From NCBI GenBank assembly GCA_017745195.1, contig JAGHZW010000180.1, forward strand, positions 47,978 to 111,977: a stretch of DNA of 64,000 nucleotides, in the 5' to 3' direction. A program made the position numbers and the translations under genes. Shown piece by piece: positions 56,249 to 64,000 of the stretch. Each line of letters starts with the position of its first letter. Position 1 is the stretch's first letter. This stretch comes from Pseudoxanthomonas sp. (GTDB lineage Bacteria; Pseudomonadota; Gammaproteobacteria; Xanthomonadales; Xanthomonadaceae). Below the pieces are notes generated by a model. That model saw nothing but the letters and a program-made list of their open reading frames with translations, was not told the origin of the DNA and made no database searches.

Positions 56249-56324
<76 letters not shown>

Positions 56325-56434: not shown

Positions 56435-56507
56435 GATCCGGCAGCGGAATGCGCGTGCAGCGGACCGTGAACCGCGCGCGTGGCTTCGATTCCGCCCCGG
56501 GCTCTTT
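56435..56507 (+). pseudogene. Decayed tRNA-Cys-like relic
   Basis: GATCCGG...GCGGAAT...TGCAGCGG...CCGC...TTCGATTCCG.CCCGGGCT aligns by eye to a tRNA-Cys scaffold; anticodon loop altered, stems mismatched, no CCA. Confidence 0.55.
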
Positions 56508-56514
56508 TGGATCA

Positions 56515-56544
56515 GACGAAGGCCCGCAGAAGCGGGCCTTCGTC
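56515..56544. terminator. Hairpin/terminator at the 3' end of the giant minus-strand operon
   Basis: GACGAAGGCCCGC-AGAA-GCGGGCCTTCGTC, perfect 13-bp stem, 18 bp from the stop at 56562. Confidence 0.75.
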
Positions 56545-56561: not shown

Positions 56562-59500
56562 CTAGACCTCGAAGACTTCGGCGTATACGAGCCGTTCCTC
56601 GACCACGATGCGACGCCGCGCCGGTGCGCCGGCGACCGGCACCGTGCGGTCCGTGTAGTAACGCTCGAACTCGCGCAGCATCAGCCGGCCGACCTTGCCC
56701 CGCGGCAGCGTCGGCAAGGTGGCGCTGGCGCGCCAGAACGGCGGGTCGAAGATCACGCCGGGATCGATGACGGTGATGTCGCCGATGTCGGCTACGGGAG
56801 GGCGGGTCGTCGCACCGGTTCCCGGCCGGACGCCGGTGTCGAGCACGGTCCGCACCTCGGCCCGGTCGAAGCGCAGCGCTGCCCCATTGCGCAGGTTCAC
56901 CTGCACCTGCGGCGGGGCCGGGCGCACCAGCGGATCGGTCGTGGCCACCGGTGCGGCCTGAGTGCTGGCGTTGACGGCGTCGGTTCCGGTCAGCGATGTC
57001 GCCAGCACCGCCTGGTCCTCCCAGGCCAGGTCCGAATCGATCTTCGCGTCCCGCGTCTGCCAGACCAGTTCGATGCGGTTGCGGCCGTTCTCGCCGGGCA
57101 CGAACGGCCCGGTGAACGAGATCCCGAAGTACTCGCTTTCGCTGGTACCTGGCGGGTTGTGGCGCCGCATCGGTCCGCGGGCCGGGACCGGGCCGCGCAA
57201 GGCCAGGCTGAGGGCCTGGCCGTTGCGCGACAGGCTCGCCGTGCGGCGCGGCAGGACCTGGGCATATTCGGCCAGGACGACGTTGGAGATGCGCGCGTCG
57301 GGCATGGCATGCGGCTGATAGCGCACCAGGGCCAGGCGTACGAAGGGCAGGTACGTTGCGCCCGGATCGAGTTCGATGTCGCAAAACCAGAGTTTGCGAC
57401 CAGGGTCGAAGTGGACGCGATGGCCGACCACGTGCGCCTGCAGTCCACTGCCGGGCAGGGTGACCGCTTCGTTGGCGACGGCAGCGGCGAAGTCGCCGAC
57501 CCGCGAGCGCGGATGCGGAAGCGGCGCGTCCCAGAGTGGATCCAGGCCCCACTGGGTGACAAATGGCAACTGCTGCGGCGTGATGCTGGCGAACGTGCTG
57601 TCGTTGCCGGCGATGACGACGCCCAGCAGTTCGCCGTCGCCGGAACTGAACCAGGGCCGTTCCAGGTACACGCGCAGGCCGTTGCCGTGGCGCGTACTGC
57701 CCAGGCTGCCACCGGCCGTGCCATTGCGTTCCCAGCGGAAGGTCGGCACCACGTAGACGATTTCCGGAGCGTCGGGCATGGCGCTGGCTGGAACGACGGC
57801 GCCGCCCGTGCCGCCGCTGGCGACGTTTTGCACCGGCGCGCCGGCATCCTCTGCCGCATCGAGTCCGGGTGCGGTGTCGATGCGCACGCGCTGGGGTTCG
57901 GCGACCGGGCCGTCGTGGGTGATGCGTGCGGCGTCGGCGAACAGTTCCGAAGGCAGGTATTCGCGGAAGCGGGTGGTCGCGCGCAGGAAGTAGCGGACGA
58001 AGCGGAAACGGGTATCGCCGAATTCGTGGCGGTTGCCGGGTACGGCGGGCCGTTTGGCGAGGTCGTTGTCGTTGACCTGGCCGCCGACCGGTTCGAAATC
58101 GCGCTGTTCGGCCACCGCGCCCTGCAGGGTGAAGACGTTGGCGTGGTTGTCGTGCAGGCGGATTTCGGCGAGCACCGCTTCGTGCTCGACCCGTTTCGGA
58201 AGCTCGGCGGCGGGATCGTCGATCCACTCCTGCCATTGGCCGACGACCTCGAACTGGCCGGTGCTCGGTCCATGCAGGGTGACGCGGCGCGCGATCAGGG
58301 TCGCGGCCGGCGCGCCGGCCTCGCGCTGCACGCCCAGATACTCCAGTCGCGGCGGACAGACCGGATGCTGGGTGGCATGCACGAGGACGAGATCGCGCCA
58401 CGGCGTGAGCATCCAGTTGGCGCCCGCCAGCGCCTGGGCACGCAGTTGCTGCCGTGCGTCGCCGGACTGCCAGTTCGGCAGGCCGAAGTGGCCCACCAGG
58501 CGGTCATGGACGAAGCTGGCGTAGCGCAGCCGGGCGATGTGGCCCTTGGGCAGGAACAGCGTCAGCAGGCCGGCATCCAGATCCCATTGCGGCGCGGCCG
58601 CGGTGGTGTGGGCATCGCCGCATGGCGGGCTGTCCACCTCGCCGGGCTGTTCGACCAGGCACAGGCGCAGCGAACGGACGTCGTCCGGCCAGTCGTTGGC
58701 CAGGTGTTGGCCGGGGTCGTCGCCGATGTCGCGGTCGAAGTCGACCAGCAGCACCCAGCTCTTGCTCGCCGGCAGCCAGGCCGCGCGCATGCCGGGCGCG
58801 GCGATCACGCCGGACAGGCCGGGTGCGAGCGGTTGCAGGGCCTTGCCGGCCACCAGCTGCTCGATCCCGGGTACGCCATGCAGGGCGATGCCGGCGCTGG
58901 CGGGATCGCTGAGATAGGGCACCGGAACGATGGCTTCGCGATGGACCAGGTACTGGCCGGCCGCGAACCGGTCGCGTGCAGGATCGCCGGCTTCCGGCGG
59001 CGCGATCGTCTCGCCCGTGCCCTGCACCGTGGCCACGGCGGCGGCGCGCTGCGGCGTGACCAGTTCGATCTGGGCGCCCGGGTGGGGGTGCAGCAGCGAG
59101 CCGGATTCGCGCGCGGCGATGGCATAGGCCTTCTTCACCCGCGCCGGATCGCCGCTGCCCACGGCCTGGTCGAACATGCCGTGCAGCTCGCAGGTCTGCT
59201 GCGAACTCTTCGGCGGAACGACGTGGCGTTCGGCGGTTGCGGTGTATTCGAAATCCGGGTTGGCGTAGAACTCCGACAGTTCCGCACCGATGCGCGCGCG
59301 ATAGCCTTCCGTGCCGGTATCCAGGTCGCTGCGCAGCACCAGGCGTTCCAGCGATTCGCCTTCGGTGATGCGGCTGGCGAGTACCAGCGCGGGCGGCTCG
59401 ACCGGATCGAAGCGGCCGTAGGTGAGCGGATCACTGGCCTGCTCGAACTCTCCCAGCGAGCGCTCGTCCAGGTCCAGGCTGTTGCCGGCCACGTCGACCA

Positions 59501-61481
59501 GGCGCGCGCGCACCCGGTAGGTATTGCCGTAGCGCAGCCGCGGCAGCGAGCCTTTGGCCGCATGCACCGTGACGGCCAGGCCGTTGCCCTTGTCGGGATC
59601 GAGCCGCGGCGCATCGTCCGCTTCGACGATTTCCTCGGTCTGCAGTTGCGTGCCCGGCTCGGTGCGGCTGCGCAGGGTGCGGCCCGGGCGCGGCGCGGCC
59701 AGGCTCCAGCCGCTCCAGCGAAACAGCGTCTCATGCAGGTACTGGTCGTCGGGGGTGGCAGCATCGCCGCTGGTGGATGCCCCTTTGACATAGCCTTCGT
59801 CCGGCGGCAACGGCACCTCGCGCGCGTCCTCGAGCGGCGTGGCCAAGGCGGAATACGCGCAGACCCGCTGCTGCAGCGAGCGCCAGCGGCCGTCGCTGGC
59901 GTCGTGGATGTCGACGCGATAGCCGCGCAGCATGTCCTCGGCGTAGAGGACGACGTTGGCGGCCGCGTCCGTTGACTGGAGGGCGCCGTTGTTCTGCGCC
60001 GCGGCGGCGGCCTGCGTCGCCAGCTGTGGCGCACGGCCGTGGCGGGAGATGCCGATGCCGCCGGCACGCAGCGCCGCCACCGGCTGGTGGTCGCCGGTGG
60101 TGTAGGTGACCTTGCCGTCGGCACCCAGCTCGAGGTGCTTGCCGACCAGACGCTGCGCGCTGAGCAGGAAATCGACGGTCTTCAGCGCCGCGCCGTCGGG
60201 ATCGAGCTGGTACACGTCGAAAGCGCTGGGCTCCTTGTCCTGCGACGCCGGCAGGTGGCTGTCGTTGGCCTGCCACAGGCGCAGCAGGCCGTCGGCATGG
60301 TCTTCGCTGCGCGGGCGCGGCAGGAAGCGGTCCTTCGTCGCATGCCATGCGGTCCGCGGAAAACGGTCGCCGGCGACGTCGTGGTACTGGCCGGGCGAGG
60401 TGATCTCCAGCTGCATCAGCCCGCCGGCGGGCACGGCCGCAGCCAGTGCCTTGTCGATCGCTGCGCCGTCCTTGAGCACGCAGTCGATGACCAGCCCGAG
60501 CCGCCGCAGCAGTTGCGGATGGTCGCCATAGCTGGCTACGCGCTGATGGAAATCCCACTTCGGCGTCTCCGGTGCCGGCGTCATGTTCTCGAAACCGGGA
60601 CGACGCATGGCGAGCTGGTCGCGGGTGGGCACCGTGCGCTGGTAGAAGCGGTCCGCCTGCCACATCGCGTATTCGGCCGGGCCGGAGAACCGCTCCATCA
60701 GCTGCGCGCGGCGTTCGCGCTCGGTGGGGTTGGCCACCGGAATGCTGCCATCGCGGATGCGGGCCGGATCCTGCCAGTCGGCGGGGAGGGCGCGCAACGG
60801 GAAGCTGGCGTTGTCGCCCTTGTGTCCCGGCTCCCGCGGCCATTCGACCTGGCCCTTGAAGCAGCTGCCCGGGCCGAACACGGCCCTGTTCACCGCCGCC
60901 TCGTGCGGGCGCGGGCCATCGCCGCGCTTGGGTCGTTCGTGGAAGCGGTCGAAACCGGGCAATGGCAGCTCCAGCGCACGGTCGCCCAGCGGGATCTTCT
61001 GCGTGCGCGTGCCGAGCTCGGCGAGCATTCCCTTCAGCGTGGGATCGGCGCTGCGCCAGGGTAGCAGCCGCGGGTGCTCGCCGGCGCCGGCCTGCAGCGA
61101 CAGCGACTGGTAGTGCTGGCGGACGAAACCGAGCACGTTGCGCAGCGGATACGAGCGCAGGTTGACCCGGCTGAAGTCGCGGAACACGTATCCGGAAACG
61201 AACACGGTCTTGGGGAACAGATGTCGCCACAGCGCGCTGTCCGGAGCCAGGGCGGGATCGGCCGGCAATGGCTCAAGGCCGACGCTGGCGCCCCCGATGC
61301 GCAGGGCGAAGGTGATGTCCTGCACCGTGCGCGGCCAGTCCAGCCACTCGGGAAAAGGGCCGAGGTGCTGTTCGGCGGCGCTGCCCGGCGTCAGCCGCGG
61401 CGAGACCACGATCGATACCCGCCAGCGACCGTCGATGCGGCCATGGGGGACGACGCTCCACACGATGTTTTGCTTGGCCAT
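56562..61481 (-). CDS. Giant uncharacterised protein (1639 aa), no evident signal peptide, beta-sandwich/FN3-like motifs
   Basis: 4.9-kb ORF with natural protein composition; ATG 15 bp after the upstream stop with AAGGA nearby; downstream hairpin; motif LPRLRYGNTYRVRARLVDVAGNS. Confidence 0.85.
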   Translation of the reverse strand: MAKQNIVWSVVPHGRIDGRWRVSIVVSPRLTPGSAAEQHLGPFPEWLDWPRTVQDITFALRIGGASVGLEPLPADPALAPDSALWRHLFPKTVFVSGYVFRDFSRVNLRSYPLRNVLGFVRQHYQSLSLQAGAGEHPRLLPWRSADPTLKGMLAELGTRTQKIPLGDRALELPLPGFDRFHERPKRGDGPRPHEAAVNRAVFGPGSCFKGQVEWPREPGHKGDNASFPLRALPADWQDPARIRDGSIPVANPTERERRAQLMERFSGPAEYAMWQADRFYQRTVPTRDQLAMRRPGFENMTPAPETPKWDFHQRVASYGDHPQLLRRLGLVIDCVLKDGAAIDKALAAAVPAGGLMQLEITSPGQYHDVAGDRFPRTAWHATKDRFLPRPRSEDHADGLLRLWQANDSHLPASQDKEPSAFDVYQLDPDGAALKTVDFLLSAQRLVGKHLELGADGKVTYTTGDHQPVAALRAGGIGISRHGRAPQLATQAAAAAQNNGALQSTDAAANVVLYAEDMLRGYRVDIHDASDGRWRSLQQRVCAYSALATPLEDAREVPLPPDEGYVKGASTSGDAATPDDQYLHETLFRWSGWSLAAPRPGRTLRSRTEPGTQLQTEEIVEADDAPRLDPDKGNGLAVTVHAAKGSLPRLRYGNTYRVRARLVDVAGNSLDLDERSLGEFEQASDPLTYGRFDPVEPPALVLASRITEGESLERLVLRSDLDTGTEGYRARIGAELSEFYANPDFEYTATAERHVVPPKSSQQTCELHGMFDQAVGSGDPARVKKAYAIAARESGSLLHPHPGAQIELVTPQRAAAVATVQGTGETIAPPEAGDPARDRFAAGQYLVHREAIVPVPYLSDPASAGIALHGVPGIEQLVAGKALQPLAPGLSGVIAAPGMRAAWLPASKSWVLLVDFDRDIGDDPGQHLANDWPDDVRSLRLCLVEQPGEVDSPPCGDAHTTAAAPQWDLDAGLLTLFLPKGHIARLRYASFVHDRLVGHFGLPNWQSGDARQQLRAQALAGANWMLTPWRDLVLVHATQHPVCPPRLEYLGVQREAGAPAATLIARRVTLHGPSTGQFEVVGQWQEWIDDPAAELPKRVEHEAVLAEIRLHDNHANVFTLQGAVAEQRDFEPVGGQVNDNDLAKRPAVPGNRHEFGDTRFRFVRYFLRATTRFREYLPSELFADAARITHDGPVAEPQRVRIDTAPGLDAAEDAGAPVQNVASGGTGGAVVPASAMPDAPEIVYVVPTFRWERNGTAGGSLGSTRHGNGLRVYLERPWFSSGDGELLGVVIAGNDSTFASITPQQLPFVTQWGLDPLWDAPLPHPRSRVGDFAAAVANEAVTLPGSGLQAHVVGHRVHFDPGRKLWFCDIELDPGATYLPFVRLALVRYQPHAMPDARISNVVLAEYAQVLPRRTASLSRNGQALSLALRGPVPARGPMRRHNPPGTSESEYFGISFTGPFVPGENGRNRIELVWQTRDAKIDSDLAWEDQAVLATSLTGTDAVNASTQAAPVATTDPLVRPAPPQVQVNLRNGAALRFDRAEVRTVLDTGVRPGTGATTRPPVADIGDITVIDPGVIFDPPFWRASATLPTLPRGKVGRLMLREFERYYTDRTVPVAGAPARRRIVVEERLVYAEVFEV

Positions 61482-61496
61482 GTCCTTGGTCTCTTC

Positions 61497-64000
61497 TCAG
61501 GCGAAGGCGTCGCAGTACTCGCGCCAGCCGTAGGTGGTTTCGTCGTCGATCAGCGCCAGCTCGTCGGCCAGCGGCAGCAACGGGTCGGTCGACAGGCCCA
61601 TGAGCTGGCGCAGGGTGGGATCGCCGTTGGAGCCGGCGAATTTCTTCTCGCAGCTGATGGTGACGCTGGCGCTGAAGAAGAAGACCTCCACCTCGATGGT
61701 CAGCTCCGCGCGGCCCACGCACTTGCCGCTCTCGAACTCGTAGCGCAGCTCCAGGTACAGCTCCAGCGAGGCGGTGATCAGCCCGAGCACGCTGACGTGG
61801 CCCTCCAGGCGGAAGTAGCCGGTCAGCGAGCACTCGTCCTGCTCCATGCGGAAGTAGATGCCGGCCATCACCGAAACGCCGCCCGACGCGACCCCGAAGT
61901 CCACCGAGATCGCCGCGCCGAACTCGAACGCCGCCTCCAGCAGCTGGATGCCCGACGGGTCCAGGGTGATGCCGAAGAAGCCGCCGCCGCCGAAGCACCA
62001 GACGGTGAGGTGGAACGGCTGTTCGCGGGTGCAGAAGTTGAAGCGCACCGACAGCGGCTGGCCGATGAACGGCACGGTGAAGCCGGCGCCGAGGCTGAGG
62101 TTGGAGATGTTGAGCACGCCGCAGGTGATGCTGGGCAGCGAGACGTCGAAGCCGGCGTCGATGCCTTGGGCGCTGATGTCCAGGTAGGGCGGGTCGGAGA
62201 AGCCGTCCAGCGGAATCAGGTCGCGCAGGGTTTCCACGAAGGACAGCGGACCGACGAACTTGATGTCGCTGAGCAGGACGTCCACGCCCATCTTCGCCGA
62301 CGAGTCGACCTTGAACTCGATTTTCTCGAAGTTCAGTTCCAGGAAGCTGGCCGGGGCGATCAGCACCAGGTCGAAATGGTGCAGCCCGCACAGCACCTGG
62401 ATCTTCGGTGCGCCGCCGCTCTTCTTGACCCTGGCCTCCACCGCGATGATGAACGAGTGCGGGTCATGGACGACGAACAGCGGGGCATCGGCATCGAAGC
62501 CCCAGCTCTTGATCTCCGGCTTCCAGTCGAAGCGGATCACCAGTTCCTCGCCGAGCAGGTTGCCCAGTGCGTCGGCCACGCCACCGAGCGCATCGAGCGC
62601 CGTCTTGACGCCATCTAGCGTGCCGAGGATCGCATCGCGCGGTGCGCCTTCCAGCAGGGGGAACGCGGCGATGTCGTCGCGCACGTCGCCCAGCGCACCG
62701 GCGACAGCGGTCAGCTTCGGCGCCAGTTCGTCCGGGTGGGTAAGCAGTTCGCCCAGCGACTGGCCGGGGGCGTCGTTGGCGAGCAGATCGTCCAGGGCGT
62801 CGAACAGCGTCTTGCCATGGCCGTAGAGCGCGAGGATGGTGGACACGCCCGCGATGAGGGTGAGGCCGCCGCTGACCGCCCCGTTCACTGATTGCCGGAA
62901 GCCGGCCGGCAGTTGCGCCTGCGCCGCGACGGTATCGCGCAGGTCCTTCAGCGCGTTGCCCAGCTTGCCATTGCCCTGCGGCGGGTCGAGCAGGTCGTCC
63001 AGTTCGATTCCGGCCAAGGTGTCGGCGAGGTCGAACGTGCGGTTCTGGAGGGTGTCGAGCTCGGTGCGGACGGCCTGCGCCAGGTCGGTCACGGCCTTGA
63101 CCTTGGCTTTCACCAGCGCGGCCGGCGCGGCGCCGAAGGCCGGCGCCTGGCTGGCGATGTCCTCCAGCGTGCCGGCGAGCACCTCCAGCGCGGCGCGCGC
63201 CAGGCCCGCGGGCTGCTGCGGCAGCGCCGACAGCAGCTGGTACAGGCGCATCAGTTCGCCGAAGAACGATTCGATCTTGCTGCTGGCCTCGGAGACGAAC
63301 TTCGGCACCTTGTCCGGATTGCCGAGCAGGTTGCCCACTTCCTTGATCACCGCCGACAGCGGGATGCAGCCGAACAGCAGGGGAAGCGGCAGACTGCCGA
63401 GGGTGGGTGTTGCCGGGAAGAACTGGTCGGGCACGACCTTGCCGGCCAGCACCTTGCTGACGTCGCCGGCGGTGGGACCAAGCGCGCGCGACAGCGCCGA
63501 CGGAAGCAGGTTGGGCATCACGAAGCCGCCGCTGCGATCGCCCTGGCGCGAGAAGTCCAGGGTGCCCATGCCGGAAGCGGATGCGATGTCGACGAACACT
63601 TCGCCCTTGTTCTGCGTGGCATCGAAGCCGCGGCGGGCGTAGGTGTCGTTCCACGCCAGCCGGTTCTGACCGGGGCTTCCGCTCAGCTGCGAAAGCGGTG
63701 CGATGAAGGCATCGGCGCCGTTCACGCGGGGGAAGAACATGGGCCGTGTCAGGCCCTGGCTGTAGGCCTTGAACGCATTGATCGAAGTGCTGTTGCCGGT
63801 CGCCGGTACATGCGCACCGAAGCCCATCGCCGCCACTTCCACCGAGGTGTCGCCGGGCTTGACGCTCGGTGCCAGCGTTACCCGCTGGCGGCGGAGATCG
63901 GCGATGGTCCACGGGCGGCGCTCGGGCTGGTCCCAGCCATTGGCACCGGAGAAGGCCAGGTTCGCCGCCTCGGTCGCGCCCTTCAGGCTGCCCTGGCTGC
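61497..64000 (-). CDS. Giant uncharacterised protein (>830 aa, 5'-truncated by window edge) with helical insert and long beta-rich C-terminus ending WREYCDAFA
   Basis: I checked that the frame has no stop from 63842 up to the window end, so the listed GTG is probably not the true start; GC-ending codons. Confidence 0.85.
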   Translation of the reverse strand, partial: SQGSLKGATEAANLAFSGANGWDQPERRPWTIADLRRQRVTLAPSVKPGDTSVEVAAMGFGAHVPATGNSTSINAFKAYSQGLTRPMFFPRVNGADAFIAPLSQLSGSPGQNRLAWNDTYARRGFDATQNKGEVFVDIASASGMGTLDFSRQGDRSGGFVMPNLLPSALSRALGPTAGDVSKVLAGKVVPDQFFPATPTLGSLPLPLLFGCIPLSAVIKEVGNLLGNPDKVPKFVSEASSKIESFFGELMRLYQLLSALPQQPAGLARAALEVLAGTLEDIASQAPAFGAAPAALVKAKVKAVTDLAQAVRTELDTLQNRTFDLADTLAGIELDDLLDPPQGNGKLGNALKDLRDTVAAQAQLPAGFRQSVNGAVSGGLTLIAGVSTILALYGHGKTLFDALDDLLANDAPGQSLGELLTHPDELAPKLTAVAGALGDVRDDIAAFPLLEGAPRDAILGTLDGVKTALDALGGVADALGNLLGEELVIRFDWKPEIKSWGFDADAPLFVVHDPHSFIIAVEARVKKSGGAPKIQVLCGLHHFDLVLIAPASFLELNFEKIEFKVDSSAKMGVDVLLSDIKFVGPLSFVETLRDLIPLDGFSDPPYLDISAQGIDAGFDVSLPSITCGVLNISNLSLGAGFTVPFIGQPLSVRFNFCTREQPFHLTVWCFGGGGFFGITLDPSGIQLLEAAFEFGAAISVDFGVASGGVSVMAGIYFRMEQDECSLTGYFRLEGHVSVLGLITASLELYLELRYEFESGKCVGRAELTIEVEVFFFSASVTISCEKKFAGSNGDPTLRQLMGLSTDPLLPLADELALIDDETTYGWREYCDAFA

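Follow-up and report, generated by a model that had tools for sequence, protein, structure and literature searches.

A two-gene cassette of Pseudoxanthomonas encoding a predicted heterodimer with an open amphipathic β-sheet: a possible membrane-attack particle

Introduction

The closest described counterparts of the system reported here are the binary and β-pore-forming toxins (anthrax PA-type toxins, Vip1/Vip2, PirAB, aerolysin and the MACPF/CDC proteins), outer-membrane β-barrels, the lipid bridges TamB, YhdP and AsmA and, in the logistics of release, the umbrella toxins of Streptomyces. The system itself is a pair of adjacent genes, A and B, encoding proteins of 1553 and 1639 residues at the end of a stretch of 64 000 nucleotides from Pseudoxanthomonas sp. 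(GenBank assembly GCA_017745195.1, contig JAGHZW010000180.1, positions 47 978–111 977 of the forward strand); the whole of this stretch is referred to as the window. An earlier sequence-only reading of the window had proposed that the pair belongs to an undescribed system matching none that it could name. Scans of Pfam, NCBIfam, PADLOC, PHROGs and the Protein Data Bank (PDB) sequences gave no match for the cores of A or B, and no full-length, high-confidence match to a characterized system was found, in agreement with that proposal. A literature search found no description of the family, which is a weak negative as the family is unnamed and supplements were not covered. The pair has neither a family name nor a whole-fold match.

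Binary and β-pore-forming toxins share with the pair two linked genes, a frequent lack of signal peptides and amphipathic hairpins with hydrophobic tips. They differ in refolding only one or two hairpins, whereas A has about six pre-formed hairpins per chain, and the pair has no enzymatic subunit. No match to a known β-pore-forming or binary-toxin family was found in Pfam, NCBIfam or the PDB sequences, and no β-groove, MACPF or aerolysin chain is among the 50 matches listed in our fold searches. The umbrella toxins UmbA/B/C are described as a secreted multi-protein particle with a twin-arginine translocation (Tat) signal on one subunit and variable lectin modules that engage the target (PMC11062931). 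The proposed logistics of multi-protein release, a Tat signal on one subunit (in some A proteins) and swappable target modules are common to both systems. Unlike the umbrella toxins, A and B lack ALF repeats, a trypsin-like domain and a C-terminal polymorphic toxin, with no Pfam match; their C-termini are invariant, and the system comprises two genes and spans six phyla. By analogy, the pair may work like a binary pore-former or, logistically, like the umbrella toxins, yet it could be assigned to none of the families tested.

The pair is a 10 kb unit that remains intact across six phyla and thousands of sequence clusters, yet no name or description of it was found. Copies are known in cultured non-pathogens, among them Cupriavidus metallidurans CH34 and Streptomyces; together with the small number of genes and the confidently predicted interface, this makes the system unusually accessible to test.

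The gene pair and its conservation

The features of the pair, in window coordinates, are as follows.

56562–61481, minus strand: gene B, an open reading frame of 1639 residues with its full coding length inside the window
56562–59411, minus strand: C-terminal half of B (residues ~690–1639), three to four tandem fibronectin type III (FnIII)/Ig-like domains with variable insertions
59412–61481, minus strand: N-terminal half of B (residues 1–690), α/β, the predicted clasp of the A sheet
61482–61496, minus strand: spacer of 15 nucleotides between A and B, containing an AAGGA ribosome-binding-like site
61497 to beyond 64000, minus strand: 3′ part of gene A (residues ~721–1553 of 1553)
61638–62195, minus strand: C-terminal sheet of A (residues ~1322–1507), an antiparallel meander of ~12 strands with five hydrophobic hairpin tips
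62559–63311, minus strand: variable insert of A (residues ~950–1200), amphipathic-looking and helical by sequence reading
66158 (window-equivalent; G000:C180:114135), minus strand: start of gene A, an ATG 2158 nucleotides outside the window

The two co-oriented minus-strand frames 15 bp apart, as first described in the sequence-only reading, are confirmed. The start codon of A was picked by inspection; a version of 1825 residues was dropped because it reads through masked bases, and the homologues begin close to the chosen ATG. The GC content at third codon positions of both frames (0.87–0.89) is similar to that of the flanking housekeeping genes and full-length homologues exist, so that both are genuine genes.

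We fetched 160 loci with B, of which 124 could be tested for linkage, having the start of B and more than 300 nucleotides upstream of it. In all 124 the gene immediately before B is A (123 by script and one, L039, in which A is frameshifted). The other 36 loci were set aside: 34 of them are truncated at contig ends, and the remaining two (L129 and L131, near-identical) hold the C-terminal half of B alone without A and look like remnants. The spacer between the genes has a median of 14 nucleotides and is at most 50 nucleotides in 99 of 111 pairs. The reciprocal test was limited to plasmid records: both genes are present in 19 of the 23 with either gene, and the four single-gene records are weak partial matches. 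No A–B fusion was seen among the best 150 representatives of thousands. Clustering of 2298 flanking open reading frames, together with Pfam scans of 128 and 87 proteins, gave no conserved third gene. The system is a self-contained two-gene cassette. The expectation of an obligate pair with patchy cross-phylum spread is thereby supported, the named sources being Pseudomonadota, Acidobacteriota, Gemmatimonadota, Bacillota, Actinomycetota and Chloroflexota.

The family is large. Relatives of B number 404 among 7998 scored candidates and those of A 1093 among 7991, with a Bacillus query giving 1458 among 7997; at E ≤ 1e-30 a profile search with A reached 3294 clusters, defined at 50% identity and counting fragments. 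Two strict patterns, which are biased to this clade, matched 387 stretches of the species-genome collection, and the pair is therefore rare per genome. No phage record matching B was found.

Protein A consists of a disordered N-terminus, a conserved β-rich N-terminal half, a variable helical insert, the C-terminal amphipathic sheet and a terminal helix that carries the motif WxxYCxAFA. The N-terminus, which lies outside the window, is Lys/Ala-rich and disordered over ~140 residues; the A N-termini of this clade are basic and disordered, with a median net charge of +5 over the first 30 residues. As judged from profile gaps, including those of Streptomyces homologues, the insert is almost missing in Bacillus-type homologues and reaches ~1000 residues in an Agrobacterium plasmid form. 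An N-terminal extension of ~400 residues, β-rich-looking and without a Pfam match, occurs in some A proteins (L132:5919–7187 and 42 proteins); 24 of the 42 proteins that have it carry a Tat-like motif by a looser pattern. The motifs GLRVYLERPWFSSG and PFVRLALVRYQP are located in the C-terminal half of B. Some Bacillus and Streptomyces B proteins (L083, residues ~895–960; L084 and L093) have an insert of ~65 residues that matches two PHROGs, to which no function is assigned there.

Several statements of the sequence-only reading about the proteins hold. The blocks that it quoted from A and B as conserved sit on invariant or near-invariant alignment columns, Walker A and HExxH motifs are absent from both proteins, and B has no transmembrane-like window (maximum 19-residue hydropathy 1.19). 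Protein A has one marginal window of this kind (1.89). A thioester motif is likewise in neither protein, a hydrophobic N-terminal helix or membrane anchor is absent from this A and this B, and a search of the proteins for internal repeats found none.

Predicted structures

Protein A was modelled through the homologue P0245 (1017 residues, 36% identical in the alignment). The model is nearly all β [predicted local distance difference test score (pLDDT) 88, predicted TM-score (pTM) 0.77]. Its residues ~800–995 form ~12 antiparallel strands that match segments of many outer-membrane barrels with Z scores of 10–12, the best being 12.0 with a root-mean-square deviation (r.m.s.d.) of 9.0 Å; over ~180 residues the r.m.s.d. 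to FhuA, FemA and the Mtr-complex barrel is 3.3–3.5 Å. The C-terminus of A is predicted to be an open amphipathic sheet with the curvature of half a large β-barrel. The structure searches used whole chains, one domain filled each list, and the N-terminal 700 residues of A were barely covered. For B we modelled residues 2–1201 of the L132 homologue, which is 34% identical (pLDDT 89, pTM 0.73). Three to four FnIII-like domains make up its C-terminal half; the best single-domain match has a Z score of 9.4 and an r.m.s.d. of 2.6 Å over 92 residues, and tandem FnIII arrays match at Z ≃ 8. The N-terminal half of this model has no specific fold match.

The strands of the A sheet are 12–18 residues long and strongly alternating, with a hydropathy difference of 3–5 between the faces, and all five hydrophobic hairpin tips lie on one edge. 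With these strand lengths and tips, the hairpins are long enough to span a bilayer. Amphipathy is concentrated in the last ~190 residues of A, with 38.6 alternating windows per 1000 residues compared with 3.1 in the N-terminal half. We compared the composition of the sheet with that of control proteins from this genome and order. Gly, Ser, Ala and Thr make up 56% of the polar face, compared with 41% in TonB-receptor barrels, 38% in TamB, 19% in YhdP and 21% in AsmA. By this measure the face is closer to the barrels than to the YhdP and AsmA grooves, although TamB comes near the barrels too.

The predicted A–B complex

The last 360 residues of A and the first 560 of B, both from L132 and respectively 41% and 32–33% identical to the present copy, were predicted to form a complex with an ipSAE score of 0.82 (0.84, 0.79 and 0.82 in the individual runs), while the best of three controls scored 0.00. 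The complex has ~390 contacts, at least 80% of which are shared between runs, and the B fragment has a pLDDT of at least 84. In calibration 116 of 157 solved complexes attained the score mark, as did two of 215 mismatched pairs; these figures are approximate since our own alignments were used. A sequence search of the PDB gave no similar complex, which makes recall by the predictor unlikely. Inter-chain covariation over 111 pairs (effective number 48) gave noise. In our view A and B very probably form a heterodimer, as modelled. The multi-protein complex of the sequence-only reading thus stands as a tightly associated pair by prediction; the larger multi-gene apparatus that it envisaged does not, as the cassette has two genes.

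In the predicted complex B contacts the conserved polar face and the tips of the last strands of A, as well as the terminal helix. The B segments that meet the sheet are ~275–320, ~427–445 and ~565–650. In two of the A strands B touches only residues of the polar parity, including near-invariant Glu, Met, Gly and Tyr, and the residues of the hydrophobic parity are free of B contact. Three of the hydrophobic tips fall within the predicted interface.

Export signals, fused modules and neighbouring genes

Of 137 diverse A representatives, 20 have an N-terminus with a twin-arginine motif and a hydrophobic stretch, compared with none of 1155 internal windows; eight of 44 A genes from divergent loci also encode one. 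None of 163 B proteins has such an N-terminus. In Tat hitchhiking, a signal on one subunit exports its partner too (PMC10924467). The occurrence of Tat-like signals on A only would fit a hitchhiking heterodimer in a subset of the family.

Some A proteins are fused to further modules, namely PG_binding_1, an Rv2525c-like glycoside hydrolase, Big_2 and cohesin, the last accompanied by a hydrophobic helix; in five more, propeller-like repeats are visible by eye but do not reach the Pfam threshold. Of 13 co-oriented genes that lie close downstream at divergent loci, four encode peptidases, each from another family, which is suggestive for a small sample without phylogenetic control. An astacin gene and a papain-like gene stand beside two plasmid copies. 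Among 215 scanned proteins the flanking genes are overwhelmingly of housekeeping rather than defence-island type, and no linked anchoring or export gene was seen among them.

Comparison with other families

Outer-membrane β-barrels such as FhuA, FemA, the Mtr-complex barrel and CymA resemble the last ~190 residues of A in their amphipathic meander and the small residues of the polar face. They differ in that the A sheet is open (r.m.s.d. 9–12 Å to small closed barrels) and lacks aromatic enrichment; moreover, A carries no Sec signal, comes with an obligate soluble partner and is also found in bacteria that lack an outer membrane. Profile comparison detected no similarity of A to these barrels. 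The presence of the pair in Bacillota and Actinomycetota makes it less likely that it acts in the outer membrane of its owner.

With α2-macroglobulin and the complement proteins C3–C5, B has in common many Ig-like domains, and these were its top Foldseek rows (E = 4.5e-7 and weaker). The likeness is generic: B lacks the C[GA]EQ thioester motif, and the macroglobulin rows were rejected with TM-scores of 0.10 or less and r.m.s.d. values of 47–60 Å. We also rejected RHS/teneurin rows for A (TM-scores of 0.09 or less, no RHS Pfam match and no internal repeat). PADLOC (2023 library) matched none of six proteins, the viral structure library gave nothing specific, and PHROGs matched just the low-complexity N-terminus of A and the 65-residue insert of one Bacillus B. 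No linkage to sheath, tube or baseplate genes of type VI secretion systems or extracellular contractile injection systems is conserved, and VipB was not found in the genome of the present copy (87.6% complete).

Loci encoding DUF6603 (PF20248) proteins were followed as a lead, since they form patchy giant-gene clusters and appear as an Atlas feature look-alike of A at 0.75–0.76, which is a lead only. Such clusters occur in four of 301 genomes. The lead was dropped: in the four DUF6603 loci there is no hidden Markov model match of A or B, the profile probability is 1.7% and the gene set is different. We note these loci (L179–L186, in G015, G433, G292 and G256, the first a congener of the present strain) as a separate patchy cluster, in which a DUF6603 protein of 1500–3400 residues is accompanied by a gene for 500–680 residues and by one or two proteins of at least 1100 residues, none homologous to A or B. 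No paper using the term DUF6603 was found.

Possible modes of action

The sequence-only reading had suggested a toxin-delivery or secreted assembly on the one hand and a lipid-bridging apparatus on the other. The evidence leans to a membrane-acting complex that is released, and as its particular form we favour, with somewhat less than even confidence, a two-subunit membrane-attack particle. This preference is based on a bilayer-length half-barrel with shielded tips, owners with and without an outer membrane, swappable surface modules and a mobile, patchy spread. In such a particle A and B would assemble during synthesis, with B keeping the A sheet soluble. The folded pair would leave the cell by the Tat route, B hitchhiking, where A has a twin-arginine signal; copies without a signal, such as the present one, would leave by lysis, in vesicles or by another route. 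The FnIII arm of B and the swappable modules of A would bind the target surface, proteolysis may loosen B, and two or more A sheets might then join edge to edge as a large barrel in the target membrane. More specifically, and as a rather doubtful proposition, the pair could represent an unrecognized class of pore-forming weapon with thousands of members, in which a fibronectin-armed plug carries a pre-folded half-barrel, two or more heterodimers close the barrel in the membrane of a rival or predator, and swappable modules binding walls and sugars redirect it to new targets. If pores do form, the pair would add a new architecture to the known membrane-attack proteins and a new participant to the competition among soil microbes.

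A number of observations weigh against a membrane-attack particle. No Tat signal is present in this A, in any of its 120 closest A relatives or in any of 119 Bacillus-type A proteins. No immunity gene or toxin domain was found at the loci and in the proteins scanned, and none of the eight genes close downstream that were scanned in the proteobacterial clade encodes a peptidase. The barrel matches are generic, with many tied rows at 3–14% identity. The complex was predicted for a single fragment pair, and its A fragment has a pLDDT of only 60–65. As B sits on the prospective lumen face of the pore, it must either move or serve as a plug. Finally, aromatic residues make up 12% of the hydrophobic face, near the 3–9% of the groove proteins TamB, YhdP and AsmA and unlike the 31% of outer-membrane barrels.

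This last observation bears on a second possibility, an anchorless lipid carrier, in which the A sheet would be a concave greasy groove or cavity, closed by the helical insert, for the extraction or transport of lipids or other hydrophobic molecules, and B an outer scaffold with a docking arm. The mean residue volume of the hydrophobic face (136, compared with 125–135) also resembles that of TamB, YhdP and AsmA, and a B subunit bound to the polar face would leave the greasy face free. A faint Foldseek row to microsomal triglyceride transfer protein (rank 48, E = 4.7e-3, TM-score 0.06) is a hint only. The lipid-carrier interpretation fits the aliphatic face as well as membrane attack does; taken together, the composition of the sheet is mixed and does not separate a pore from a groove. 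Protein A is comparable to the lipid bridges in being a long β-rich chain with a small aliphatic hydrophobic face. It differs from them in the confinement of strong amphipathy to the last ~190 residues, in the obligate FnIII partner and in having no N-terminal anchor, and it is present in one-membrane bacteria. Profile probabilities of A to TamB (19 sequences, ~830 C-terminal residues), YhdP and AsmA (single sequences) are 0.9% or less. We regard a lipid carrier as rather unlikely, if still the strongest of the alternatives; were lipid carried, the pair would be an anchor-free carrier that works in bacteria with one membrane.

The remaining two interpretations fit the data less well than membrane attack or lipid transport. 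The tandem FnIII domains, the fusions to peptidoglycan-binding, cohesin-plus-hydrophobic-helix and Big_2 modules, the Tat signals and the high conservation without catalytic motifs would all be compatible with an assembly of the owner's own surface or envelope, in which A–B units, joined by their free edge strands, would build up a coat, adhesin or lattice on the owner's wall or membrane. An export signal is missing from most members, however, no anchoring or export gene is linked, and presence in one of 22 congeners with no true match in 150 genomes of the family would be unusual for an envelope building block, so that this role appears improbable. Least probable of all is an intracellular defence complex that would wait in the cytoplasm and in which, by analogy with gasdermin-like logic, A would perforate the owner's membrane once B senses infection or is cleaved: the missing signal in this copy and its clade, the insertion beside a tRNA, the patchy spread and the occasional neighbouring proteases would suit it, but PADLOC gave no match, the flanking genes are mostly housekeeping, and both the Tat signals and the fusions to modules that bind walls or sugars suggest action outside the cell.

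Insertion site

The cassette is bordered on its 3′ side by three further features of the window.

56249–56324, plus strand: tRNA-Gly(GCC), part of the host locus and outside the cassette
56435–56507 (approximate), plus strand: decayed tRNA-Cys, the left flank of the insertion site
56515–56544, no strand: GC-rich hairpin with a 13 bp stem

Genes A and B form a 10 kb insert between tRNA-Cys and lacI that is absent from most congeners, in which these two markers are 54–840 nucleotides apart compared with ~10.4 kb here. Among 22 other genomes of the genus, only G470 (57% complete) has the pair, at 85% nucleotide identity and at the same site. A survey of 150 genomes of the family returned one weak match (G145, E = 7e-5), which a profile search did not confirm. 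As the third-position GC content of the pair equals that of the flanking genes, the insertion is either not recent or derived from a similar genome. No integrase and no flanking repeat of the attL/attR type was seen at the locus.

The tRNA-Gly and the decayed tRNA-Cys are located beside the pair, as the sequence-only reading had noted. The decayed copy is full-length with many substitutions, including some in the anticodon loop, while congener copies are intact, as is that of G470. We noted no intact counterpart in the present assembly, where an intact copy may be unassembled; the sole tRNA-Cys call (C202:21288–21381, 94 nucleotides) is unlike the gene of the congeners and looks spurious. The hairpin that was taken to end the cassette is indeed present, but several congeners without the cassette have a comparable GC-rich hairpin after their tRNA-Cys. 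It is probably the terminator of the tRNA operon itself, used from both sides, and is not cassette-specific.

On the other side, the contig continues for 4.9 kb past the window edge. Further genes of the system had been expected there; instead, ~730 nucleotides of intergenic DNA follow the start of A, and after them come genes for a LacI-type regulator, tRNA-Leu and a nucleotide-sugar dehydrogenase-like protein. The two protein-coding genes are named from their sequence, without a library call.

Variant loci

Plasmid-borne copies occur in the Bacillus cereus group. The copies on Bacillus plasmids in L083 and L089 lie among nonribosomal peptide synthetase and polyketide synthase genes, and one of them adjoins a radical-SAM peptide maturase, a DUF1906 gene and a papain-like gene. 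On an Agrobacterium vitis plasmid (L088:1–12645) A has ~3000 residues with a long helical insert and B is split into proteins of 1262 and 592 residues, accompanied by a small protein with a signal-like N-terminus; a Dpd defence operon directly follows this variant cassette. At one locus only, a co-oriented phage-tail-sheath gene is found 56 nucleotides 3′ of B (L161:7317–8477). A metagenome contig (L146) carries two cassettes ~5 kb apart.

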